IMG/VR virus record: IMGVR_UViG_3300021426_000022
Span: 1 to 53,610 of that record
Reading direction: 5' to 3' (one strand)
Source: a virus
Length of the DNA: 53,610 bases
The notes under the pieces are model-generated. The model did no database searches and was not told the DNA's origin. It saw nothing but the letters and a program-made list of their open reading frames with translations. Shown piece by piece: positions 3,106-50,907 of the stretch. Within the stretch, counting starts at the first letter, position 1. Every line of letters starts with the position of its first letter. A program made the translations under genes and the position numbers.

Positions 3106-3391
3106 ACTGTTCTTCCTCCGGATAGAGCTGAGCATATTCATCGGAGTTAAATGCATCAGCATCGCACTCCCTCTTGTAGCAGTGAATGCTCACGCTCTTG
3201 CCTCCATCTCTTACGCTGAGGAATTCAGACGGTCTCATATTGAGAATGGTCCGGTAATCTGCCTTGCAGAACATTCCTTTCCAGTGCTTGTCAAGGAATG
3301 CGATGGTCTCCCGCGCTGTCCGGAAGATATCAATCGAATGAATAGTTCCTTCGACGTTCTTGCATCTGGTCTTTACCCTGTATGTGATCAC
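3098..3391 (-). CDS. Hypothetical protein (97 aa)
   Basis: ORF in the operon frame series with plausible packing. No family recognised. Confidence 0.55.
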   Translation of the reverse strand: MITYRVKTRCKNVEGTIHSIDIFRTARETIAFLDKHWKGMFCKADYRTILNMRPSEFLSVRDGGKSVSIHCYKRECDADAFNSDEYAQLYPEEEQYE

Positions 3392-3402
3392 TTATGTACC
3401 TC

Positions 3403-4560
3403 CTAATTCAAAAAGTCATTGATTGACATTTGGCCCGGTATCTGACCTGCATTGATCAGGTCTCCGTATTCCACCCCGATATAGTCAAGCACTCTCGCCC
3501 ATCCGTAAGGAGTGCCGTCCGGATCCTTGCAGCATTTGTACATCCAGAAATCCCATTCCTTCGGGTTTTTCTCTTTGAGAAGGTCAAAACGATGCGGTCT
3601 CTTTTCGATGTGGATGCCAAATCCACACATGGTGCATCCTGTCCTCTGTGCCTTGGTCGTGTAGAGCGTTCCGTCTGATCTGCGCTCTATCGTGCCGTAA
3701 ATCTCAGGTACTGGTACATTCAAATCAAGAGCCAGTTGCAGAAGGTCCTGTCTGTAGAAAATTGCAAAAGGACAGCTCCTGATTGTTGACTTCCCCCAAT
3801 AATTACAACCGTGCATCATGAGGCTTTTTGCTCTGCGTCCTCCCTCGGAAGCCATCATGCCGAGGAACGGCACGGAATTGTGCTCCTTCGCCCAATCGTC
3901 GCAGGGCTTCTCCTTCAGGTAGTAACAGCATTTCTGGCTCACCTTGAAATTGTCCGGCTTTCCGTAATTCGTCCCCTCGTTCTCGTTTTCATATCCGCCA
4001 AACAGCTCCAACCATCTCTGTGATAGCTTCATCCGGCTGTTTTTCTGCCATCCGCCATATTCGCCTGTTTCCCCGGTGATGATGGCATGCCTGACCGTTT
4101 TGTTATCCTCAGATGGATTTTCAAGCAATTCGATTTTCCCGGCTATTTCCTTACTCAGGACAGGGAATCCATACTCCTGGAGTATCTCCATCTTTGTCCA
4201 TGGCTTGCCTTCTCTCGGCCCGTCTGTATGCTTTGCAGGCGTCAGTCTTGTTACACCCATAAGCCGGTGCACATATTGGATGCTCCTGTCTTCCAATCCT
4301 GAACAGCTGATAAGCTCGACGTCATGAAATCCGCAATGATCTCTGATGAAGTACGACAGTGTAATAGAATCGAGTCCGCCAACGCTTACATGCGTGTTAT
4401 ATCCTTTCTCTCTTGCCTCTTTGATATACTCTCTTACAAGATTCTCGGCATAGCGGACTTTCATCGCATATGATAAGCAGCGCTGTTTCTGGAGGAACGC
4501 CGCCTTCTTTTCCTCGACGTTGTTCTCTTCCATCATCTCAAATACACTTTTACCCATCAC
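3403..4560 (-). CDS. Phosphoadenosine-phosphosulfate (PAPS) reductase-like / PP-loop ATPase family protein with a Cys-rich C-terminal domain
   Basis: PP-loop-like HVSVGGLDS near the N-terminus. C-terminal cluster CTMCGFGIH...KCC. Size and layout are typical of phage PAPS_reduct (IbrA/DndC-like) proteins. Confidence 0.8.
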   Translation of the reverse strand: MMGKSVFEMMEENNVEEKKAAFLQKQRCLSYAMKVRYAENLVREYIKEAREKGYNTHVSVGGLDSITLSYFIRDHCGFHDVELISCSGLEDRSIQYVHRLMGVTRLTPAKHTDGPREGKPWTKMEILQEYGFPVLSKEIAGKIELLENPSEDNKTVRHAIITGETGEYGGWQKNSRMKLSQRWLELFGGYENENEGTNYGKPDNFKVSQKCCYYLKEKPCDDWAKEHNSVPFLGMMASEGGRRAKSLMMHGCNYWGKSTIRSCPFAIFYRQDLLQLALDLNVPVPEIYGTIERRSDGTLYTTKAQRTGCTMCGFGIHIEKRPHRFDLLKEKNPKEWDFWMYKCCKDPDGTPYGWARVLDYIGVEYGDLINAGQIPGQMSINDFLN

Positions 4561-5652: not shown

Positions 5653-6579
5653 CTACAGTCCGGACATTGCTCTCATCATCAGGTCGACATCTTGATTTTC
5701 CAGTTCCTGAATGATATGCAGGTAGACTTTCTGCGTTGTATTAATGCTCGAATGGCCGAGTCTTCTGGAAACGCTGGCGACTGATGCACCTGCATGTAAA
5801 AGGAGACTTGCGTGCGTATGGCGTAGACCATGCAAGGATATAACCGTTATTCCGAGTTTCTTGCAGTGCCTTTCTAAAATGTCGTTCACGGTTGAGTTGT
5901 AAACGGGATACTTTGGGTTTACGAATATCGGCTCATCTTTTTTTAATCCGGACACAAGTTCCGAGAATTTTGTAACAACCTGCCAGTCTATCCGTATGGT
6001 TCTTACAGACGACTTGTTTTTTGTCGGCAAAAATCCAGTTCCGGTCTTATAGTCCCATGTCTTAGAGATGCTCAAAGACTGATTTGAGAAATTGAAATCA
6101 TCCGGTGTGATGGCAAGTGCTTCGGAAAATCGCATTCCGGTTTTAACAATCAGGAAAATGAGCCAGTCCCAGTTGGCGGTTTTTGAAAGCTCCAAATCCT
6201 CTATCAGCATATGCGTTTCATACTGGTTGAGAAACTTCACCTTTTTCTTTCTCGGCTGTTTCCCCTTTATCACTGCCTTGCGTGTCGGGTCTCTTTCTAT
6301 GAGACCTTCGTCTATGGCATCGAGAATTGCTCCTTTCAGATGATGGTGAAAATCCATTACGGTTTGCTTTTCGTGCTCATCTGCATATGCATTCAGCAAA
6401 GACTGGTAGTGCATTCTGTCCATCTCGCTTATCCGAAGATTGGGAATGAGTTTTTTGAGCCACTTTATCGTCAGCTCGTATTTTCTCAGGGTGACATCTC
6501 GAACAGCTCCTTTTTTGTATGTCTCAACCCACTGTTCGTACCACTCACAAAAAAGGGTGTTTCTGGTATCCATGTTCAC
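5653..6579 (-). CDS. Second tyrosine recombinase (phage integrase family), embedded in the early operon
   Basis: Catalytic pattern: R in TGMRFSEAL, HxxR in HGLRHTHAS, H and Y in LGHSSINTTQKVYLH. N-terminal SAM-like region. Start overlaps the upstream stop. The region looks more AT-rich than its surroundings by eye (not counted). Confidence 0.9.
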   Translation of the reverse strand: MNMDTRNTLFCEWYEQWVETYKKGAVRDVTLRKYELTIKWLKKLIPNLRISEMDRMHYQSLLNAYADEHEKQTVMDFHHHLKGAILDAIDEGLIERDPTRKAVIKGKQPRKKKVKFLNQYETHMLIEDLELSKTANWDWLIFLIVKTGMRFSEALAITPDDFNFSNQSLSISKTWDYKTGTGFLPTKNKSSVRTIRIDWQVVTKFSELVSGLKKDEPIFVNPKYPVYNSTVNDILERHCKKLGITVISLHGLRHTHASLLLHAGASVASVSRRLGHSSINTTQKVYLHIIQELENQDVDLMMRAMSGL

Positions 6580-16904: not shown

Positions 16905-17381
16905 TCATGCTCCGATTGCACTGATTACTGCAAATACAGGTTCAAGTTCCTGCAAGTCCCGGTATTTGCGCTTGAATGCTCCAAGCTCTGCCAATGCGTT
17001 ACGGTAGAGCACCCCGCGAGACCTGTCATCAGCCATCGCCGATGCGATATTGATGTACCGGGCTTTGTTGTGCTGGCTTCCATTGGATACATTGACAAAT
17101 GCTTTGACCGTCTTCGGTTCAGCTCCTTCGGCATCGATCTCAATTCGAAGATTGTTGATGATTGTTTTGGACTGATGGAGACGATACTTCTCAGCTGCAA
17201 CATCATCTCTCCACTCAAACATCCCGTGTGTGGGTGAGTCTTCCGGTCTGGAAGCATCCAGAAATGCTTCCTTGGTGACCTGTCCGTCTCTTGCTTCAAT
17301 GACTTCCAACGTCTGCCCTACCGTTTCCGCCGGCACCTTGTATGCTTCTGCCGCGTAACTGTACTTGCGTTTGTATACCAT
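16905..17381 (-). CDS. Hypothetical protein (158 aa)
   Basis: Start moved to the ATG (MVYKRKYSY...) behind AAAGGAGGTGTACGA. The upstream part of the track ORF lies in the repeat tract. Confidence 0.65.
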   Translation of the reverse strand: MVYKRKYSYAAEAYKVPAETVGQTLEVIEARDGQVTKEAFLDASRPEDSPTHGMFEWRDDVAAEKYRLHQSKTIINNLRIEIDAEGAEPKTVKAFVNVSNGSQHNKARYINIASAMADDRSRGVLYRNALAELGAFKRKYRDLQELEPVFAVISAIGA

Positions 17382-18019
17382 TCGTACACCTCCTTTCTGG
17401 CTTCCAAGCCTGCCTTGACTTACCACAGCTCACCACGCCTCTCCTTTTCCAACCCTACCCTGCCTGCCTTGCCCTTGCCTGACAAGCCTTAACCCGACAC
17501 ACCCCGCCAATCCAAGCCTGCCCTGCCTCGCCCGTCATGCCCTATCTTGACGTACCACACCATTCCTGCCATATCTCGCCATTACACACACTGACAAACC
17601 CTAACTAACAACACCCATATGTACCAAGCCTGCCATACCGAGCCGCTACTTATCCCGCCCCAACTTGACCTACCCCACCATGCCTGCCATACCTCGACTC
17701 AGCTCACCTCGCCGTACAGGACCACACCGGAACACAACAAGCTTTTCCTTACCCCGCCTGCCATGACTTACCCCGCCCCACACAGACGTAACAGTCCCTA
17801 CCACACCAAGCCTGCCATGACCTACCAAGCACAAACTTGCCCCAACAGAACTCGACTCGCCTCACCTGGACTGCCAGACCATAACAAGCCTTACCGCACC
17901 TTGTCACGCCCCACCGAGCAAAACCTAAACGCGCCGAACCTTGACTGCCGTACCGTGCCAGGCCTCGCCCCGACAAAACACACCTCACAGAACCTAACCT
18001 GTCCTGCCTTGCATGGGAA
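17382..18019. repeat. Non-coding, strongly strand-asymmetric tract (C-rich and G-poor on the plus strand) with at least 10 same-orientation copies of a degenerate CCTGCCAT-centred motif
   Basis: Core copies are near 17406, 17514, 17563, 17626, 17680, 17755, 17808, 17866, 17940 and 18000. Consensus is AAGCCTGCCATGACYTACC. Two 35-nt units (17546-17580 and 17664-17698) match at 30/35 positions. Sampled 60-nt lines contain about 27 C against 8-10 G. Confidence 0.85.
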
Positions 18020-18039
18020 GCGGCTGATTACTCAGCCGC
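18020..18039 (-). terminator. GC-rich hairpin overlapping the stop codon of the 223-aa gene (no U-tract)
   Basis: GCGGCTGA-gtaa-TCAGCCGC, an 8-bp stem, followed by TTCCCAT. May act as a terminator or RNA stabiliser. Confidence 0.35.
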
Positions 18040-18699
18040 CTCTACGTGATACATTCCGTTCCGTCCGTCTTTCTCGGGCCGCCACTCTCCGATTCCGCAG
18101 GCAAAGCCTCCGGCATTAATGCAGTTGATGATCTGTTCAATCGTCATGGATCCGTTGGAGTTGTACTCGATTACTAAGTCCATGTACCAGGTCGAAAACT
18201 CTCCGCGGTATCTCAGATCCGTGCCGCCGATTCCTACGCGGACCATATCCTCGCGCATCTCGGGGACACTGCCCTTAATCTCTGCATACTCTCCAAACTC
18301 TGTTGAAAGGAAGTATGATCCTCTGAGAGCCATCTGGTTTGATACCCAGCCCATACGATATGCGGCGCTGTTTGCACTCTGCTTGATACCACCGACCGGA
18401 AAACCAAACTTTGCACCATCCTCGACTGCCTTGATGAATTTCTCTTCCAGTTCCTCATCAGTGTCTGCTTCCGGCTTAGGAGTAAGCCAGTACAGAGAAT
18501 TGACAAAGTCCTCAAACGGTCTTCTGCTCTCACGAGCCTTGGTCTTCGTTGTCTTCTGCTGCGCTTCGAGCATCTGGCGCTTTGCCTTCTCACTCCAAGC
18601 GTGAACGATGAGCGGCGTGTCTCCAACGATCCTGATCGGGATCCTCTCTACACTGATGGGCTTAATCTCAATAGTTGCTTCTTTCTTTGCTGTTGCCAT
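18028..18699 (-). CDS. Orphan protein (223 aa) immediately downstream of the RNA island
   Basis: Clean ORF. Beta-rich N-terminus IRIVGDTPLIVHAW and a glycine-rich C-terminal loop GGFACGIGEWRPEKDGRNG. No family recognised by eye. Confidence 0.8.
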   Translation of the reverse strand: MATAKKEATIEIKPISVERIPIRIVGDTPLIVHAWSEKAKRQMLEAQQKTTKTKARESRRPFEDFVNSLYWLTPKPEADTDEELEEKFIKAVEDGAKFGFPVGGIKQSANSAAYRMGWVSNQMALRGSYFLSTEFGEYAEIKGSVPEMREDMVRVGIGGTDLRYRGEFSTWYMDLVIEYNSNGSMTIEQIINCINAGGFACGIGEWRPEKDGRNGMYHVEAAE

Positions 18700-18747
18700 T
18701 TTGTTACCTGCCTTTCTTATCTTTTTCTTTCTTTATGCTTTTACACT

Positions 18748-18768
18748 GCCGGTCTTTCCCGGCTGTCA
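18748..18768 (-). repeat. Conserved 21-nt hairpin element, copy A
   Basis: GCCGGTCTTTCCCGGCTGTCA matches the copy at 19008-19028 at 20/21 positions. On the minus strand it folds as GCCGG-GAAAGA-CCGGC. Lies about 50 nt upstream of the 223-aa ORF. Confidence 0.8.
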
Positions 18769-18911
18769 GAGCGTTTTACCTTACAAGCTCACAACGTATC
18801 CAGTCTCTTCTTCCTTGCGTCACGCGCTGGCGCCCGACTGCCTGAGGCTCATCTTCAGGATTTCGGATAGTGCACCTAAGGTTTGTCGACAAACACTATC
18901 CAGAAGCCTAA

Positions 18912-19002
18912 TCGGGATGATAGGAATCGAACCTATATCAAGAGGTTTCGCGGGACTACCTTCTTATCAACCACCGAAGCTCTACCATTGAGCTACATCC
19001 CG
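18912..19002 (-). ncRNA. tRNA-like cloverleaf #3 (91 nt) with a non-canonical anticodon region
   Basis: Acceptor CGGGAUG/CAUCCCG, D arm GCUC-AAUGGUA-GAGC, T arm AUAGG-UUCGAUU-CCUAU. There are 42 nt between the D and T arms; the best helix there is AAGA(A)GG/CCUCUU closing a 13-nt loop UAGUCCCGCGAAA. Confidence 0.6.
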
Positions 19003-19007
19003 TTGTT

Positions 19008-19028
19008 GCCGGTCTCTCCCGGCTGTCA
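19008..19028 (-). repeat. Conserved 21-nt hairpin element, copy B
   Basis: GCCGGTCTCTCCCGGCTGTCA. It ends 5 nt (AACAA) upstream of the 5' end of cloverleaf #3. A partial third copy, CCGGTCTCTC, is at 19119-19128. Confidence 0.8.
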
Positions 19029-19158
19029 CGGATTCCTGACAGGCTGCTTGCAATCTCCGTCATCACAATTCGCACCGTGCCTGCTTGGCGTGGGTTTAGC
19101 CATCCACATCGCATCCCCCCGGTCTCTCGCGCTTATAGCGGGTGGATTGTCGACCAAA

Positions 19159-19241
19159 TAGGGAATGAAGGATTCGAACCTTCGTCTCGGATTATCCTGA
19201 GTTTAAGCGCGCCCCGCGCTCTACCACTGATCTAATTCCCT
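19159..19241 (-). ncRNA. tRNA-like cloverleaf #2 (83 nt) with no recognisable anticodon arm
   Basis: Acceptor AGGGAAU/AUUCCCU, D arm GAUC-AGUGGUA-GAGC (one mismatch), T arm GAAGG-UUCGAAU-CCUUC. The 33 nt between them contain GCGCG-GGG-CGCGC and CUC(A)GG/CCGAG helices. Confidence 0.55.
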
Positions 19242-19246
19242 CTATA

Positions 19247-19274
19247 AAGGGCGGCCAGCACGATTGCCGCCCTT
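19247..19274 (-). other. 9-bp GC-rich hairpin 5 nt upstream of cloverleaf #2
   Basis: AAGGGCGGC-10 nt-GCCGCCCTT. Flanked by a TTTATAG tail on the minus strand and GTTTGTT on the plus strand, so it could be a weak terminator or a processing hairpin. Confidence 0.5.
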
Positions 19275-19354
19275 GTTTGTTATGCAATTTTGGCGTTGGC
19301 CCTTAATAGACTGCTATAGTTACGGGTGTATGATTGTGTCCATAGCCTGTGCCG

Positions 19355-19393
19355 TTATTTAGGACCGTTTATATTCACATGACCTTTACCTCC
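19355..19393 (-). promoter_or_regulatory. Consensus SD followed by a start-stop (ATG-TGA), or a 7-codon GTG micro-ORF (MNINGPK)
   Basis: The minus strand reads AAAGGAGGTAAAGGTC ATG TGA, with 7-nt SD spacing. The overlapping reading GTG AAT ATA AAC GGT CCT AAA TAA ends at 19355. Confidence 0.4.
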
Positions 19394-19479
19394 TTTCTTT
19401 GAATTTTTATAAGCATCGCAGGAGAAATCAAAACCCAATCTCGTTGCAATTCGTACAATGCTTCCTGCGTGTTTACCGA

Positions 19480-19695
19480 TTAATCAAGACACTGCATGAT
19501 GTCGCGGATCATAGCGCTTCCACTGTCCCCGGTAACGTCTATGCGGGTTTTGCTTCCGCAGCTAAACACCGCCAGCACATAAGCGTCGTCTGTGTAGTCG
19601 TTGTCGTGGTATTCTAAATCTACAAGCTCCCTGTATTGGCGGGTGGCCTGCAACGCTGCTGTAAGACTCGCACAAATCAATCTCTTGTCTTCCAT
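19480..19695 (-). CDS. Hypothetical protein (71 aa)
   Basis: Start moved to the ATG (MEDKRLICASL...) behind AAAGGAGATGGCGAA. The upstream part of the track ORF overlaps tRNA-like gene #1. Confidence 0.55.
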   Translation of the reverse strand: MEDKRLICASLTAALQATRQYRELVDLEYHDNDYTDDAYVLAVFSCGSKTRIDVTGDSGSAMIRDIMQCLD

Positions 19696-19786
19696 TTCGC
19701 CATCTCCTTTCTTGGGAGCCGGTGTATTATCTACCCCACCGGCAGGGCTTGAGCAGGTATTATGGATTCGGTCTGGGGAAGACCGA

Positions 19787-19858
19787 CGCGAGTGCCAGGA
19801 ATTGAACCTGTGGTATGGACTGCGCGACATCCATGTTCTGCCACTGAACTACACTCGC
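19787..19858 (-). tRNA. tRNA-like gene #1 (72 nt) with an 8-nt anticodon loop; identity undetermined
   Basis: Acceptor GCGAGUG/CACUCGC, D arm GUUC-AGUGGCA-GAAC, T arm (A)CAGG-UUCAAUU-CCUG(G). Anticodon helix UGGAU/GUCCA encloses GUCGCGCA. Variable region is 4 nt. In the canonical 7-nt register only 2 Watson-Crick pairs and 1 wobble pair form. Confidence 0.6.
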
Positions 19859-19897
19859 TTGTTTGCCCTCGTGACCTCCGGGGCGGGTCGCTTGTTC

Positions 19898-20140
19898 TTA
19901 TTTGATTGCTCGCAGAGCGCAGAACGTGAACTCGTGACCACTTGCCACCTTCGTCGTCTTATGCGTCTCATAGTCGACGCCCTCTTTGAGCCCTACGGCC
20001 CGCGCGATAGCCGAGATCGCGTTGAGAGCTTCGCGGCACTTGCCTTCGGCCTCGTGGTCGCCGGCCGCCTGATGATACGCGGCGGCGTATGCATATGTGT
20101 AATATTCCTCAATCAGTGCGTTAAGAACTTTCTTTTTCAT
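19898..20140 (-). CDS. Hypothetical early protein (80 aa)
   Basis: Start moved to the ATG (MKKKVLNALIEEYY...) behind AAAGGAGGACACC. Confidence 0.55.
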   Translation of the reverse strand: MKKKVLNALIEEYYTYAYAAAYHQAAGDHEAEGKCREALNAISAIARAVGLKEGVDYETHKTTKVASGHEFTFCALRAIK

Positions 20141-20186
20141 GGTGTCCTCCTTTACCCTCGCAACCTCTGGGGCGGGGTTATGATCC

Positions 20187-20324
20187 TCAGCGGTAAAGTC
20201 CGTATGGATCATCGTAATCATCGGCGCAATAATTCGGGTTAAACTCCATATCAGCCGCTCTGCAAGCGTCTTCTTCGCTCATCCCCATGTCCATGTAATA
20301 ATCGATGGTTTCTAAATAGTTCAT
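20187..20324 (-). CDS. First early ORF, small acidic protein (45 aa)
   Basis: ATG (MNYLETIDYYMDMG...) behind AGAGAGGATTGCA. Lies about 70 nt downstream of the early promoter. Confidence 0.45.
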   Translation of the reverse strand: MNYLETIDYYMDMGMSEEDACRAADMEFNPNYCADDYDDPYGLYR

Positions 20325-20373
20325 TGCAATCCTCTCTGTTTTCTTTTTCGTATGTACTTTATTTCCTTTAAAA

Positions 20374-20390
20374 CGTGAATTTCCTTCACG
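20374..20390. promoter_or_regulatory. Operator-like inverted repeat O1 (CGTGAAtttccTTCACG)
   Basis: Perfect 6-bp arms with a 5-bp spacer, just downstream of the early promoter -10. Related to the site at 20445-20461 (13/17 positions). A half-site, CGTGAA, is at 20416-20421. Confidence 0.6.
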
Positions 20391-20398
20391 CATTTCCT

Positions 20399-20427
20399 AC
20401 TATAAATGTTCTTTGCGTGAATGTCAA
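20399..20427 (-). promoter_or_regulatory. Early (lytic) sigmaA-type promoter
   Basis: The minus strand reads TTGACA, 17 nt, TATAGT (-35 at 20422-20427, -10 at 20399-20404). Confidence 0.7.
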
Positions 20428-20444
20428 GCACATTTACTGATTTT

Positions 20445-20461
20445 GTTGAATTTCTTTCACA
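20445..20461. promoter_or_regulatory. Operator-like site O3 (GTTGAAtttctTTCACA)
   Basis: Same architecture as O1. Overlaps the -35 of the repressor promoter. Confidence 0.5.
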
Positions 20462-20474
20462 GAAGGAGTATATT
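20446..20474 (+). promoter_or_regulatory. Repressor (maintenance) promoter
   Basis: TTGAAT, 17 nt, TATATT on the plus strand, about 30 nt upstream of the repressor ATG. Confidence 0.6.
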
Positions 20475-20504
20475 CTAATTATCAGAAGTGAAGGAGGGGG
20501 TACT

Positions 20505-20894
20505 ATGGAACAGTTGTATAAGAACATAAAAGCAAGGCGGATAGAGCTTGGCCTAACACAGCAGGAGCTCGCCGAAAAGATGGGCTATACGAACAGGTCG
20601 AGCATTGCCAAGATAGAAAATGGTGCTGTCGACCTCAGTCAGTCGAAAATCATCCAGTTTGCTAAAGTTCTGGAAACTACTCCGGGGTCCTTGATGGGAA
20701 GCGCAGACCATCATGAGGAACTCATTAACACACAGTCTGAACATCAGGAATATTATGAAGATGAAACCGTCCGGGCAGTTACAGATCGTCTCAGGAAGAA
20801 TCCTGAGTATTCCGTCATGTTCAAGGCTGCATCTAATGTAAAACCGGAGGACATTGATTTTGTTACACAATTTATCGAGAAGATGTCTAATTAG
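20505..20894 (+). CDS. XRE/ImmR-like phage repressor (129 aa)
   Basis: Start at MEQLYKNIKARRIELGLTQQELAEKMGYTNRSSIAKIENG behind GAAGGAGGGGGTACT. HTH_3 pattern. Followed by an ImmA-like gene. Confidence 0.88.
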   Translation: MEQLYKNIKARRIELGLTQQELAEKMGYTNRSSIAKIENGAVDLSQSKIIQFAKVLETTPGSLMGSADHHEELINTQSEHQEYYEDETVRAVTDRLRKNPEYSVMFKAASNVKPEDIDFVTQFIEKMSN

Positions 20895-21613: not shown

Positions 21614-22735
21614 ATGGCAAAATCTAAGTACAAGAGACGCGCAGACGGTCGTAAGGAAGCCACGATCCGGATTGACGGAAAGCGGATCCACGTCTACGGC
21701 TACACTGATTTGGAGATTGAACTCCAGAAAGAAGAACTGATTAAAGCATCCCATGACGGGACACTGTATGTCGACAAGGTAACAACATTCCGGGAATGGT
21801 CCGGAAAGTGGCTGGAGCTGACGAGGCCGAATCGAAGCGTGAACACCATGAAGATGTATGATAGTTCCGTAGCAAAGCTTGACGCGCTCCTGGGAGATTA
21901 TCCGCTGTCTGCTCTGAAGACGTCCGACCTGCAACTTGCGCTTAACCGGTATGCTGACAATCCGAGGACTCAGGAAATCCTTTACATCACCCTTGGCCAG
22001 ATCTATAGCAAGGCCTTAGCCGAGGAAATGATTGTCAAGAATCCGTGTACGAAGCTTGAAAAGGTGAAGTATAAGGCACCCGAAAAGAGATCTCTTACGG
22101 ATGCTGAGAAGGATGCAGTTGAAAGGGCGGAGCTGAAGCTCTCGGACAGGATCCTGTTGGACTTACTCTACTACTGCGGACTTAGAAGAGGGGAAGTTCT
22201 GGCACTGTCCCGGGGACAGTTTGATTTGAAGAAGTGGACCGTCAAGATTGATGCAGCTATCGTGTTCGTAACAGACAGCCATTCGGAGCGAAAGCCTATG
22301 CCGAAGACCGAAGCAGGATTCCGAACGCTTCCGATCCCGTCCCCGATCAGAGACAGAATCACAGAGTATCTCAGCGAGTTAGATGGGATGTATCTGTTCA
22401 CGAAGCAGGACGGAGCTTTTGTTACTCACAACAGCTATGCTTCTCTTTGGAAGAGAATCCTGCTCGCAGTCAACACGGCTGCCGGCGGAGTGAATTACTA
22501 TGATAAAGCCAAGCGAAAGACTCTTATGCAAATAAATGCAATCCCGGGACTCACCGCGCATGTCTTCCGGCACAACTACTGCACGATGCTCTATTATGCA
22601 GGCGTGCCGGTCAAAGACGCGCAATATCTCATGGGACACGCCAACCCCATGACGACGCTCAGCATATACACACATCTCGACCAGATGAATACATCCTCTG
22701 CCGAGCTCCTTGAGAATTACTTGATCGGTACTTGA
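21614..22735 (+). CDS. int: Tyrosine integrase
   Basis: R in CGLRRGEVLAL, HxxR in AHVFRHNYC, H and Y in MGHANPMTTLSIYTHL. Adjacent to attP. Confidence 0.93.
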   Translation: MAKSKYKRRADGRKEATIRIDGKRIHVYGYTDLEIELQKEELIKASHDGTLYVDKVTTFREWSGKWLELTRPNRSVNTMKMYDSSVAKLDALLGDYPLSALKTSDLQLALNRYADNPRTQEILYITLGQIYSKALAEEMIVKNPCTKLEKVKYKAPEKRSLTDAEKDAVERAELKLSDRILLDLLYYCGLRRGEVLALSRGQFDLKKWTVKIDAAIVFVTDSHSERKPMPKTEAGFRTLPIPSPIRDRITEYLSELDGMYLFTKQDGAFVTHNSYASLWKRILLAVNTAAGGVNYYDKAKRKTLMQINAIPGLTAHVFRHNYCTMLYYAGVPVKDAQYLMGHANPMTTLSIYTHLDQMNTSSAELLENYLIGT

Positions 22736-22796: not shown

Positions 22797-22854
22797 GACG
22801 ACATTTTGACGACCACCGTCTTCCTTTTCATGCCGTGACGACAGTTTGACGACC
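22797..22854. repeat. Two copies of the 18-bp arm-type element GACGACAKTTTGACGACC (22797-22814 and 22837-22854)
   Basis: Direct copies 40 bp apart. A third copy is on the other side of the core at 23041-23058. Confidence 0.85.
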
Positions 22855-22862
22855 GCTATTTC

Positions 22863-22892
22863 CACCTATTTTCACCTATTTTCGCCTATTAC
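22863..22892. repeat. 10-bp tandem repeat x3 (CACCTATTTT, CACCTATTTT, CGCCTATTAC)
   Basis: Read directly. Helical-turn periodicity. Confidence 0.85.
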
Positions 22893-22898
22893 AGGACA

Positions 22899-22947
22899 AA
22901 CAAAAAATGCCGGAAAAGCCTTTAAATATCAGCTTTTTCCGGCATTT
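22899..22947 (-). terminator. Rho-independent terminator following the tRNA fragment (possibly bidirectional; also downstream of int)
   Basis: The minus strand reads AAATGCCGGAAAAAGC, a 12-nt loop, GCTTTTCCGGCATTTTTTGTTTG. Confidence 0.75.
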
Positions 22948-22955
22948 ATAAGGTC

Positions 22956-23002
22956 TGCGCCTCCGGGGACTCGAACCCCGGACACCCTGATTAAGAGTCA
23001 GC
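22956..23002 (-). tRNA. Partial tRNA-Lys(CUU): anticodon loop to 3' acceptor end only. Predicted attP core.
   Basis: The minus strand reads CTGACTCTTAATCAG GGTGTC CGGGGTTCGAGTCCCCG GAGGCGCA. It shows a CU-CUU-AA anticodon loop, T arm and 3' acceptor. No D arm or 5' acceptor lies upstream. Confidence 0.75.
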
Positions 23003-23040
23003 TTAACCGCCTTGATTTTATGCGGAGTTTCGGCACAGCT

Positions 23041-23058
23041 GACGACATTTTGACGACC
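23041..23058. repeat. Third copy of the arm-type element GACGACATTTTGACGACC
   Basis: Identical to 22797-22814 and lies on the opposite side of the tRNA-derived core. Confidence 0.85.
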
Positions 23059-23227
23059 ACTCTTTACCACTCAATTCGTTCGAGTTCACTCGTATAAACT
23101 CATATCCGCACTCGATTCCATGATATTTATTATCGGTTTCATGATATTTAATATCATTTTCTGGTATTTGATAATATTTCCCCACACAACTTCGCAAGCA
23201 GGGCAACGGTATATACCCGGCGCAAAA

Positions 23228-49972: not shown

Positions 49973-50413
49973 TCAAACATCAGTGAGGGATTTCGTGGGG
50001 AGTTTAAACTGAGACAGGGCATATCCGTGCAGTTCTCTCTTCACATAATCTACGTGGTAATTCATGTATGTTGCTATGTCTTCCCATTTCTTCAGTTGTA
50101 TGTATCTGTATCTCAGCAGGATGTTGCAGCGTGGATCCTCGACAGCTTCGATTGCCGATGAGATTTCATGCAGTTCATCAATGAGCGATTCGCGTTTCAG
50201 TCTGAACTTCATTATAAGCCCATCGAGCTTTACAGCATAATCCGACAGGTCGGACATATCTCCGCTTCCGTGCGGCATCCCGTCATAGTTGACCGCGCCC
50301 GGGAGTGCACCAAGCCGGCACGCATTGATTTCGTTTTCGATCTCTTCTAAGGCCTGCACGCCCCATCTGTACCGTGATAAGAATTCTTTCTTCGCTTCAT
50401 TTTCAGGTGTCAC
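49973..50413 (-). CDS. ArpU/RinA-like late transcriptional regulator (sigma-70 region-4-like)
   Basis: C-terminal LLRYRYIQLKKWEDIATYMNYHVDYVKRELHGYAL. Position upstream of the terminase genes. Confidence 0.65.
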   Translation of the reverse strand: MTPENEAKKEFLSRYRWGVQALEEIENEINACRLGALPGAVNYDGMPHGSGDMSDLSDYAVKLDGLIMKFRLKRESLIDELHEISSAIEAVEDPRCNILLRYRYIQLKKWEDIATYMNYHVDYVKRELHGYALSQFKLPTKSLTDV

Positions 50414-50907
50414 TCTTCCTTGCCTCCCTTTTCAGTTATGTTCTCATGTGTCCACCATAAGCATATCAGATTCCAGATGACCGCTCTGTCGTGCGGTTCG
50501 TCATCCTGTCCGTCCATCCACTTGAGATAGTGACGGATCGCGGAATCTATGTAGCAGTATTCCGGAAGTCCCTTCTCCCAGTTGCGTTCTCCGTACTTTA
50601 TCGCTCCCTGCTCAAAATGCTTTGACAGCTCCAACAGTGCCTTCGGGATCGTCCAATTACATACATTACAAAAATCATAAATTGCCATCAGGATATAATT
50701 CACATCTCCTGTCTGCTGATACTCGTAGACATTGGCAATCAATCCATCTTCGGCATCAGCATCACCGCTGATCATCGTTGCCACCTGCTCAAGCGGCAGG
50801 AGGTCGCATCTGCCCTTGCCTTCCGCCATGTCTCTGACTGCCCCCGTTTCAAATTCGCGTCTGTCTCCGCTGTCGAGGATACGTGTTGTCATTTCCATTC
50901 CGTCCAT
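50410..50907 (-). CDS. DUF5664 / dATP-dGTP diphosphohydrolase-N-like (MazG-related) nucleotide pyrophosphohydrolase candidate
   Basis: Pattern TGAVRD..EGKGRCDLLP...GAIKYGERNWEKG...SAIRHYLKW...DEPHDRAVIWN. Confidence 0.55.
   Translation of the reverse strand: MDGMEMTTRILDSGDRREFETGAVRDMAEGKGRCDLLPLEQVATMISGDADAEDGLIANVYEYQQTGDVNYILMAIYDFCNVCNWTIPKALLELSKHFEQGAIKYGERNWEKGLPEYCYIDSAIRHYLKWMDGQDDEPHDRAVIWNLICLWWTHENITEKGGKEE

Follow-up and report, generated by a model that had tools for sequence, protein, structure and literature searches.

Phage tRNA frames with replaced anticodon arms in the leader of a VIPR operon: candidate punctuation cassettes

Introduction

Elements shaped like a transfer RNA (tRNA) have roles other than decoding in several known systems. 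In mascRNA at the 3' end of MALAT1, in the tRNA punctuation of mitochondrial transcripts and in engineered polycistronic arrays of tRNAs and guide RNAs (tRNA-gRNA arrays), a tRNA-shaped element that is cut by RNase P and RNase Z defines the ends of the neighbouring RNA. The present work concerns three elements of this shape, termed #1, #2 and #3, which are encoded in a temperate phage ahead of the genes of a VIPR system. They lie in IMG/VR virus record IMGVR_UViG_3300021426_000022, of which positions 1 to 53,610 were analysed; this whole stretch of 53,610 nucleotides (nt) is called the window. As in the systems above, #1 to #3 are tRNA-shaped, probably sit inside a longer transcript, precede a guide-RNA system and have a frame for which the anticodon arm is irrelevant. 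They differ in that they are bacterial and phage-encoded, that their cleavage is predicted, that some of their inserts are conserved, and that they are placed upstream of vipr and not between vrRNAs.

Non-decoding phage RNAs that depend on RNase P include species 1 and 2 of T4 (rnaC and rnaD of the tRNA cluster), C4 of P1 and CI of P4. No sequence or Rfam relationship links these to #1 to #3 (the C4 family gave no match), which in contrast are full cloverleaf frames. Y RNAs of the YrlA type (RF02553) carry D and T arms and an acceptor-like stem, do not decode, and are found in phages (Chen et al. 2014, PMC4201824); YrlA of M. smegmatis is cut by RNase P and receives CCA (PMC4201824). The ends of YrlA, however, form a Ro/Rsr-binding stem and its acceptor-like stem is closed by a loop, whereas the ends of #1 to #3 form the acceptor stem. 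In engineered tRNA scaffolds the anticodon stem-loop is swapped for a structured RNA of foreign origin, and processing and stability are provided by the frame (Ponchon and Dardel; PMC3753655); these are laboratory designs, unlike the natural, evolving arrangement described here.

VIPR itself has been described in two preprints: RAMP-like Vipr polymerises on vrRNAs made of alternating GGY/NN pentamers, and the system brings about RNA-guided silencing of rival phages (bioRxiv 10.64898/2026.04.26.720920; 10.64898/2026.04.26.720927). Some vrRNA arrays are interspersed with hammerhead ribozymes for processing (10.64898/2026.04.26.720920), so that built-in RNA processing is a known VIPR theme. The term tRNA occurs in neither preprint.

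Results

Three intact tRNA frames lack a canonical anticodon arm

An earlier note, made by reading the letters of the window, had claimed three genuine tRNA-like genes with acceptor, D and T arms but without a canonical anticodon arm. The three elements are:

19787..19858, minus strand: tRNA-like #1, 72 nt; UGGAU/GUCCA closes an 8-nt loop GUCGCGCA; 4-nt variable loop
19159..19241, minus strand: tRNA-like #2, 83 nt; hairpins GCGCG-GGG-CGCGC and CUC(A)GG-AUAAU-CCGAG in place of the anticodon and variable arms
18912..19002, minus strand: tRNA-like #3, 91 nt; 42-nt insert with a proposed H-type pseudoknot

Both parts of the claim held. The Rfam tRNA model RF00005 (gathering score 29) matched the minus strand with identical ends at 19858-19787 (#1; 43.8 bits), 19241-19159 (#2; 48.8 bits) and 19002-18912 (#3; 50.6 bits), with E-values of 4e-6 to 6e-8 for the whole window. 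Each match spans the full model, with a long insertion replacing the anticodon arm: the alignments hold 10, 21 and 32 nt (#1, #2 and #3, respectively) at a place for which the model has 9 or 17 positions. At gathering score Rfam gave no further match in the 53.6-kb window, and between 17400 and 20500 no other match beyond chance-level noise was obtained at E<=5. The standard tools returned no ordinary tRNA with a 7-nt anticodon loop; it is the finding of such tRNAs that the earlier note had named as speaking against it. ARAGORN reported #1 only, as 'tRNA-???' with the 4-base anticodon 'cgcg', which corresponds to an 8-nt loop; it found no tmRNA, and within the Rfam tRNA clan tRNA remained the best model.

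When parsed by hand, the acceptor stems paired at 7/7 positions in all three elements and the T stems at 4/5 (#1), 5/5 (#2) and 5/5 (#3). The T loops read UUCAAUU, UUCGAAU and UUCGAUU, and the D loops AGUGGCA, AGUGGUA and AAUGGUA, with G18G19 kept; #2 has one mismatch in the D stem. The 15-48 tertiary pair, read from sequence, is likewise kept as G-C in #1 and #2 and as A-U in #3. The D and T stems, 22-23 nt apart in a normal class I tRNA, are here separated by 23, 34 and 42 nt, and an anticodon arm with a stem of 5 base pairs (bp) and a 7-nt loop is found in none of the three. Thermodynamic folds gave the same helices as the hand folding of the earlier note. The loop of #1 holds the self-complementary CGCG/GCGC; its discriminator is G and CCA is not encoded. 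The proposed pseudoknot of #3 consists of stem A, CGGUG/UCCCG with one mismatch, and stem B, AAGA(A)GG/CCUCUU. The frame of #3 (C1-G72, A73, GUAGCUCA, GCAGGUUCGAAUCCUGC) presumably resembles that of a Firmicutes tRNA-Pro. Taken with their flanks, #2 and #3 form two paralogous units in tandem, each about 250 nt long.

A looser hand-made scanner gave about 18 matches per shuffled window. Outside the three loci it found no match in the real window with a 7/7 acceptor, and none that had, on top of this, a complete D stem and at least 4/5 pairs in the T stem.

Intron-containing tRNAs of the group I or bulge-helix-bulge kind were considered and rejected. The extra sequence amounts to only 1, about 12 and about 20 nt, no removal restored a 5-bp/7-nt arm on inspection, and no Intron_gpI match was found at the three loci.

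The downstream genes form a VIPR locus

What the earlier note had called an RNA island is followed on the same strand by the features below, in which aa stands for amino acids and ORF for open reading frame.

18028..18699, minus strand: vipr, encoding a 223-aa RAMP-like Vipr protein (PDB 36pp_D, SUSP1 Vipr)
17410..18010, minus strand: vrRNA array with GG every 5 nt (GGY/NN pentamers) and recurring AUGGCAGGCUUGG
16905..17381, minus strand: candidate vap (vipr-accessory) gene, about 158 aa if it starts at Met16 of the listed 173-aa ORF

The single 223-aa sequence matched only one PDB entry, 36pp_D 'SUSP1 Vipr protein' (E=0.0034), and a profile of 11 homologues matched the same entry with E=8e-10. 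Metagenomes contain no fewer than 8000 members of this family. The array, directly after vipr, is the only tract on either strand of the window with GG in a 5-nt register, and the same GGY/NN tract follows the vipr homologue in all 14 related loci. A partner of 152-173 aa after the array is conserved in relatives (62% and 43% identical); the candidate vap itself gave no family match. Judged from these features, 16905-18699 on the minus strand is a complete VIPR locus of vipr, vrRNA array and candidate vap. It resembles the published systems in its Vipr homologue, the pentamer-periodic array directly behind it, the conserved small partner gene and the phage setting; it differs in that no hammerhead or 3' pseudoknot tail was seen and that the tRNA-likes lie outside the array. 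Since the 223-aa ORF is Vipr and is followed by its array, the RNA island is the leader of a VIPR operon. This identity of the ORF and the array had been missed in the earlier note.

tRNA-like elements recur at related vipr loci

All six loci whose Vipr is at least 82% identical (L001, L334, L335, L336, L337 and L348) carry one to three Rfam tRNA matches of 73-109 nt just upstream of vipr. Where the whole leader is covered (L001, L334, L336), the order is that of the window: tRNA-like, small ORF (DUF3846), tRNA-like, tRNA-like, vipr. The other three loci show one or two of these elements, i.e. partial versions of the order. More distant vipr loci are mostly without a tRNA-like, the one exception being L012 (61% identical).

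In both acceptor and insert the three elements of L001 type (78, 98 and 108 nt) are unrelated to #1 to #3. An element of type A, of type B or of a third type, seen in L348, can stand directly ahead of one and the same vipr leader hairpin, CUCGGAUGCGGUGCACAGCAUCCAG. What is conserved at these sites is thus that a tRNA frame is present, and not which one; this argues for a role of the frame in cis. Within their families the L001-type inserts are conserved, with an invariant GAGUCCUCCUGAAAAC containing the anti-Shine-Dalgarno-like CCUCC and with two CCCC motifs. The palindrome in the type A loop changes from GCUAGC (L001:3853-3930) to GUCGAC (L334:3349-3426) by two double substitutions. The loops of L012 and of L001 type A are only 2-4 nt too long, and in two elements, one of 61 nt in L040 and another in L130, only about 10 nt separate the D arm from the T arm and the anticodon arm is missing altogether. 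To judge from these armless relatives, the anticodon arm is dispensable.

In L001 the DUF3846 gene (3144-3509) has an in-frame TAG inside the domain, and the Pfam match (E=3.4e-21) runs across the stop codon. As DUF3846 is intact in the close relatives L334-L337, the TAG is probably a mutation or sequencing error and not a case of recoding. A reading of the L001 element as an amber suppressor, suggested by CUA in its loop, was rejected for the same reason and because the CUA is part of the palindrome that becomes GUCGAC in L334.

Relatives of #3 covary and share a pseudoknot-like insert

Pattern scans of IMG/VR and of Joint Genome Institute (JGI) metagenomes for relatives of #3 yielded ten further distinct sequences, giving a family of 11. 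The closest relative, L211, lies on a metagenomic contig of an unrelated phage. Its insert is identical to that of #3 at 36 of 39-42 positions, the first 9 nt being fixed by the search pattern and the remaining 30 or so free. The acceptor stems, by comparison, agree at only 3/7 positions (GGGAGUA versus CGGGAUG), and the T stems, GCUGG/CCAGC versus AUAGG/CCUAU, at 2/5 + 2/5 with the differences compensated. Upstream of the L211 element a terminator-looking hairpin is followed by sigma-70-like hexamers, TTGACT-17-TATACT (identified by eye), and a second promoter-like sequence lies 15 nt downstream. Judged by these signals, the element appears to be a stand-alone gene.

In the 11-member family, which represents only two or three deep lineages, 97.9% of the cells paired, against 37-49% when the partners were slid. 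Fourteen pairs had changed on both sides: 5/7 in the acceptor, 4/5 in the T stem and 2/5 + 3/5 in the two pseudoknot stems. These pairing and covariation values were reached by none of 500 shuffles, so that the covariation which the earlier note had proposed to look for in homologous phage loci was indeed found. The family comparison supports a cloverleaf frame with a pseudoknot in place of the anticodon arm. It is the source of the support for the pseudoknot, because shuffle tests on the single sequence of #3 were not significant; the one mismatch that #3 has in each of the proposed pseudoknot stems speaks against this structure. The shared GUC..GCG to which the earlier note had drawn attention in the loops of #1 and #3 did not persist, as the closest relative of #3 has GCA there.

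Since stems are compensated, an insert is conserved across phages, and position is kept in all close relatives while sequence is replaced, the tRNA-likes are, on this comparative evidence, kept by selection and are not decay products. The earlier suggestion of function rather than decay is thereby borne out. Scans for close relatives of #1 and #2 with D-arm and 3'-half patterns gave only canonical tRNAs or chance matches, and a type-I insert pattern found nothing in IMG/VR.

Two further loci, L201:10742-10850 and L202 (minus strand), carry an element with the acceptor and T arm of #3 (CGGGAUG ... AGGUUCGAUUCCUAUCAUCCCGA) but with no D arm that could be recognised. It directly follows an ORF resembling an HNH endonuclease.

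The elements are flanked by hairpins within the early leftward operon

The window is a complete temperate phage with standard genetic code and long, densely packed ORFs. The following features frame the elements:

20421-20894: cI-like repressor gene, divergent from the early promoter
20399..20427, minus strand: sigma-70-like early promoter TTGACA-17-TATAGT, 11/12 consensus positions (consensus match only)
19480..19695, minus strand: 71-aa ORF with Shine-Dalgarno sequence, tRNA-likes on both sides

The leftward operon comprises two small ORFs, #1, the 71-aa ORF, #2, #3, vipr (the 223-aa ORF), an ORF-free repeat tract and genes for recombination and replication. The elements are on the same strand as the flanking ORFs, and a scan of the window for promoters gave no promoter-like site directly upstream of any of them; they are probably co-transcribed. 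In agreement with the earlier note, which had allowed for one credible coding sequence, the 71-aa ORF is the only one with a Shine-Dalgarno sequence (read from sequence) inside 18700-19897. It sits where relatives carry the DUF3846 gene and gave no protein family match. No similarity of 18700-19900 to cultured phages was found. Genes for an RNA ligase, tRNA repair, a CCA enzyme or Rsr/TROVE were absent from the 35 window ORFs scanned, a set that holds part of the late genes.

The edges of the elements are marked by hairpins:

19865..19884, minus strand: hairpin ending 6 nt before #1, within a 26-nt repeat
19768..19786, minus strand: hairpin UCGGUCU-UCCCC-AGACCGA, starting at the first nt past #1
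19247..19274, minus strand: 9-bp GC-rich hairpin ending 5 nt before #2 (z = -3.65)
19144-19157, minus strand: GUCGAC segment following #2, paralogous to the palindrome after #3
19007..19028, minus strand: 22-nt hairpin motif UGACAGCCGGGAGAGACCGGCA ending 4 nt before #3
18855..18911, minus strand: long imperfect hairpin starting at the first nt past #3, with loop palindrome UUUGUCGACAAA (z = -2.7)
18747..18768, minus strand: second copy of the 22-nt hairpin, with a GAAAGA loop, 47 nt before the vipr start codon

In six of six cases examined the upstream hairpin ends 4-6 nt short of the 5' end of the tRNA-like (for the one before #3, z = -3.0). Downstream hairpins begin at +1 to +4, i.e. 0-3 nt past the 3' end, for #1, #3 and the L001 type A element. 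With hairpins at these edges, excision of the elements would leave the neighbouring RNA pieces with 3' and 5' ends protected by hairpins.

Within or next to the elements, self-complementary hexamers turn up repeatedly: GUCGAC lies 3' of #2 (19149-19154) and of #3 (18885-18890), CGCG/GCGC lies in the loop of #1 (19821-19828), and L348 has UAUGCAUA. They may reflect loop-loop dimerisation or a site at the DNA level. The 26-nt repeat before #1, TTTGCCCTCGTGACCTCCGGGGCGGG, occurs in two copies that are 85% identical, at 19862-19887 and 20151-20176; the first closely precedes #1, and the second the ribosome-binding site of an 81-aa ORF (19898-20142).

Similar frames occur in many other viral contigs

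A scan with a fixed D arm and a T loop 32-62 nt apart found 62 viral contigs, nearly all with acceptor pairing of 7/7, a T stem of 5/5 and middles of 29-57 nt. When a different D arm was used, some 6 of the 58 distinct sequences proved aberrant. Two contigs from rumen or gut phages, L077 and L078, hold three frames with a common acceptor within 1.4 kb of ORF-free DNA (islands L077:870-2320 and L078:4280-6370). The L078 island also holds a canonical tRNA-Ile(UAU) and variant 22-nt hairpins, as well as a weak YrlA-like match at 5901-5993 (32.9 bits, E=7.6e-4; the gathering score of RF02553 is 69). It is the one trace of the Y-RNA or YrlA mimics that had been proposed earlier; in the window RF02553 did not match at gathering score, nor did it match between 17400 and 20500 at E<=5, and the ends of the elements form the acceptor stem. 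The suggestion that the elements are modules of a GOLLD- or ROOL-like RNA fared no better, as neither Rfam model matched in the window or in the related loci scanned.

Phage genes for tRNA-Ile(UAU) that have an ordinary anticodon arm and encode CCA were seen at L016:3605-3695, L025:562-654, L029, L053:485-578 and some 20 other loci. They have a long extra arm with a 7-nt loop, CRGAUWA, that looks like a second anticodon loop for GAU. The arm could be a device for charging by isoleucyl-tRNA synthetase.

The 22-nt hairpin is widespread in phages

The motif UGACAGCCGGGARAGACCGGCA was found in at least 120 viral contigs by an exact-pattern scan (loci L079-L198). Cultured phages that infect E. coli, Pseudomonas, Stenotrophomonas, Cronobacter, Klebsiella, Acinetobacter and Planktothrix carry it too, nearly always between genes and without annotation; phage mEp390 has it at L199:2501-2527. 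In addition to its two copies the window has a degenerate third one at about 19119-19131. Conservation is confined to the 22 nt. Among the matches listed, U stands at -1 in 100 of 109 instances, and G is almost never found at +1 to +3. Variant copies, including those of L078 and L206, keep the loop and the 5' GACA and have a stem changed on both sides. About 16 of 113 distinct copies among the matches listed have a tRNA or an aberrant tRNA-like 2-7 nt downstream. Other copies precede a ribosome-binding site and start codon, and the orientation follows the downstream gene.

No protein family co-occurs within 6 kb of the hairpin, terminators are not enriched nearby, and no counterpart was found in Rfam or in a literature search. 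As a tail of a vrRNA it was rejected, there being no GGY/NN periodicity upstream. A likeness to boxB of lambda is only an idea; the hairpin was not found in the 22-30 kb region of HK022, which was checked for a put-like element. Theta ribozymes, which resemble that of hepatitis delta virus (HDV), lie beside phage tRNAs, immediately 3' of them, and process tRNA ends by self-cleavage (PMC10879173). The 22-nt hairpin differs in that it lies 5' of the tRNA-like, is too small for the theta fold and matches no Rfam ribozyme; Rfam models of HDV type gave no match in 17400-20500 at E<=5. Common to phages of Proteobacteria and Cyanobacteria and to gut and rumen contigs, the hairpin could point to a universal host partner.

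Discussion

The elements are derived from tRNAs and most likely no longer decode, their anticodon arm having been replaced by unrelated structured inserts. In a tRNA, it is the acceptor stem, T arm and elbow that RNase P, RNase Z and the CCA enzyme contact, and not the anticodon arm. This is the surface that #1 to #3 keep, with a 7-bp acceptor stem, T arm, D arm and D/T elbow. Because the processing enzymes ignore the anticodon arm, and in view of the evidence from selection, position and flanks, we tentatively favour punctuation cassettes that RNase P/Z would excise from the early transcript and that would also yield stable tRNA-shaped RNAs. Host RNase P would cut the 5' end of each cassette, and RNase Z or exonucleases would trim its 3' end. 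The long early transcript would thereby be split into an mRNA for the 71-aa ORF and a vipr-vrRNA transcript, the new ends being capped by the hairpins 4-6 nt upstream and 0-3 nt downstream of the cassettes. The excised cassettes might persist as stable, L-shaped small RNAs, of which at least #3, with its conserved pseudoknot-like module, would probably act in trans in a role of its own. Among the four roles that the earlier note had listed, punctuation by RNase P/Z fits best: the cassettes are edged by hairpins, are interchangeable before the same vipr leader and include armless variants.

Several observations weigh against this reading. Most VIPR loci of the wider family are without any tRNA-like; the cassettes are thus accessory and VIPR does not require them. 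The group with at least 82% identity is one close clade, so that few independent events are represented. Where the relative of #3 in L211 seemingly stands alone, it cannot punctuate an operon. The insert of #3 is better conserved than the stems of its frame, which is more than pure punctuation requires, and in L077 and L078 the frames are arrayed in a 1.4-kb island free of ORFs. A possible but less probable explanation is that the elements are trans-acting small RNAs on a tRNA scaffold, with the frame serving processing and stability, the insert acting as effector (decoy, aptamer or base-pairing RNA) on a factor of the host or of a rival phage, and punctuation being incidental. The stand-alone look of L211 with its promoter hexamers, the near-identity of its insert to that of #3 despite different acceptor and T stems, the covarying pseudoknot stems of the #3 family, the conserved CCUCC segment, CCCC motifs and doubly substituted palindrome of the L001-type inserts, and the many viral contigs with perfect frames around inserts of 29-57 nt are all as this explanation would have it. 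It is at odds with the armless variants of L040 and L130, which have no insert, with the wholly different inserts that close relatives carry at the same position, and with the mismatches and non-significant single-sequence shuffles noted for the pseudoknot of #3. Neither a target nor a partner protein was identified. Antisense action on the phage's own transcripts was rejected, the longest complement of an insert elsewhere in the window being 10-11 nt as against 9-12 nt in shuffles. The punctuation and the trans-effector readings are compatible.

The remaining readings fit less well. Decoys or sponges for tRNA-directed host defences or toxins, be these anticodon nucleases or enzymes acting on the acceptor end (of the CapRel or MenT type), would suit the location, an accessory conflict island next to VIPR, which serves as a weapon between phages. 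The acceptor stem, T arm and elbow have been preserved, and non-decoding copies would not disturb translation. This is nonetheless improbable: what anticodon nucleases recognise is the anticodon loop, and here it is missing or variable; against an enzyme, a stoichiometric sponge would be a weak strategy; and the ORFs scanned held no repair or ligase gene. In particular, decoys for or insensitive substitutes against anticodon nucleases, as had been proposed in the earlier note, are unsupported since no anticodon loop is presented for mimicry, and the inserts differ completely between relatives. Unusual but functional decoders are very improbable. The near-canonical #1, 72 nt long with a perfect 5-bp stem and an 8-nt loop, might be a quadruplet or +1 frameshift tRNA, or altered arms might escape anticodon nucleases; the slightly overlong loops of L012 and L001 type A and the CUA centred in the loop of an element beside the L001 TAG can be cited in favour. 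#2 and #3, however, have no anticodon loop of any kind, the window uses the standard code with dense ORFs, a C and not a purine follows the predicted four-base anticodon CGCG of #1, and no recognisable set of aminoacylation identities is present (no G3:U70; mixed discriminators). The CUA in turn belongs to a palindrome that reads GUCGAC in L334, and DUF3846 is uninterrupted in L334-L337. Least credible of all are functionless pseudogenes in decay or leftovers of recombination. That all three elements are aberrant, that there is a mismatch in the D stem of #2 and there are others in the insert helices of #3, and that #2 and #3 are tandem paralogues would be in keeping with decay; perfect acceptor stems, retention of all nucleotides for tertiary contacts, compensatory changes across relatives, an insert conserved in the unrelated phage of L211 just downstream of promoter-like hexamers, and a position conserved in all close relatives are not.

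A wider form of the punctuation reading is rather speculative. According to it the cassettes would be an integral and so far overlooked part of one VIPR lineage, maturing the vipr-vrRNA transcript as a natural counterpart of the engineered tRNA-gRNA arrays; at least some of the released RNAs, such as #3, would work in trans in conflicts between phages or between phage and host; and phages more broadly would keep a large and diverse class of 'anticodon-replaced' frames as a platform for small RNAs. New here are a family of phage tRNA frames in which the anticodon arm is replaced, the conserved place of these frames before a VIPR operon and the variant with a putative pseudoknot; the general kind is known from mascRNA, YrlA and tRNA scaffolds. 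The usual explanations for tRNA genes in phages are codon usage and evasion of defences that cut tRNAs; the present set cannot decode yet appears to be selected. If the frames are self-excising and self-stabilising carriers, nature has anticipated the engineering of tRNA scaffolds and tRNA-gRNA arrays, many 'undetermined' tRNAs of viromes would be a hidden pool of small RNAs, and the link to VIPR, a system described in the 2026 preprints only, poses a testable question on the maturation of vipr and vrRNA in phages of Firmicutes.

Other features of the window

Between the 71-aa ORF and #2, in DNA free of ORFs, a strong Shine-Dalgarno sequence AAAGGAGG is followed by AUG-UGA, a start-stop mini-ORF (19375-19396, minus strand). 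The repressor gene is adjoined by an ImmA-like ORF, labelled on the basis of an HExxH motif in its translation, and a tyrosine integrase is encoded at 21614-22735 (label read from the translation). Beside the integrase gene, at about 22846-23100, the reading APPGTRTPD in translation is suggestive of a tRNA gene's 3' half, which may be the core of attP; neither ARAGORN nor Rfam called a tRNA in this stretch. A second tyrosine-recombinase gene lies in the early region (5653-6579), a C5 cytosine methylase is encoded at 951-2711, and a protein with the N-terminal domain of a dATP/dGTP diphosphohydrolase at 50410-50907. Taken together, these three genes hint at DNA modification or manipulation of the nucleotide pool.

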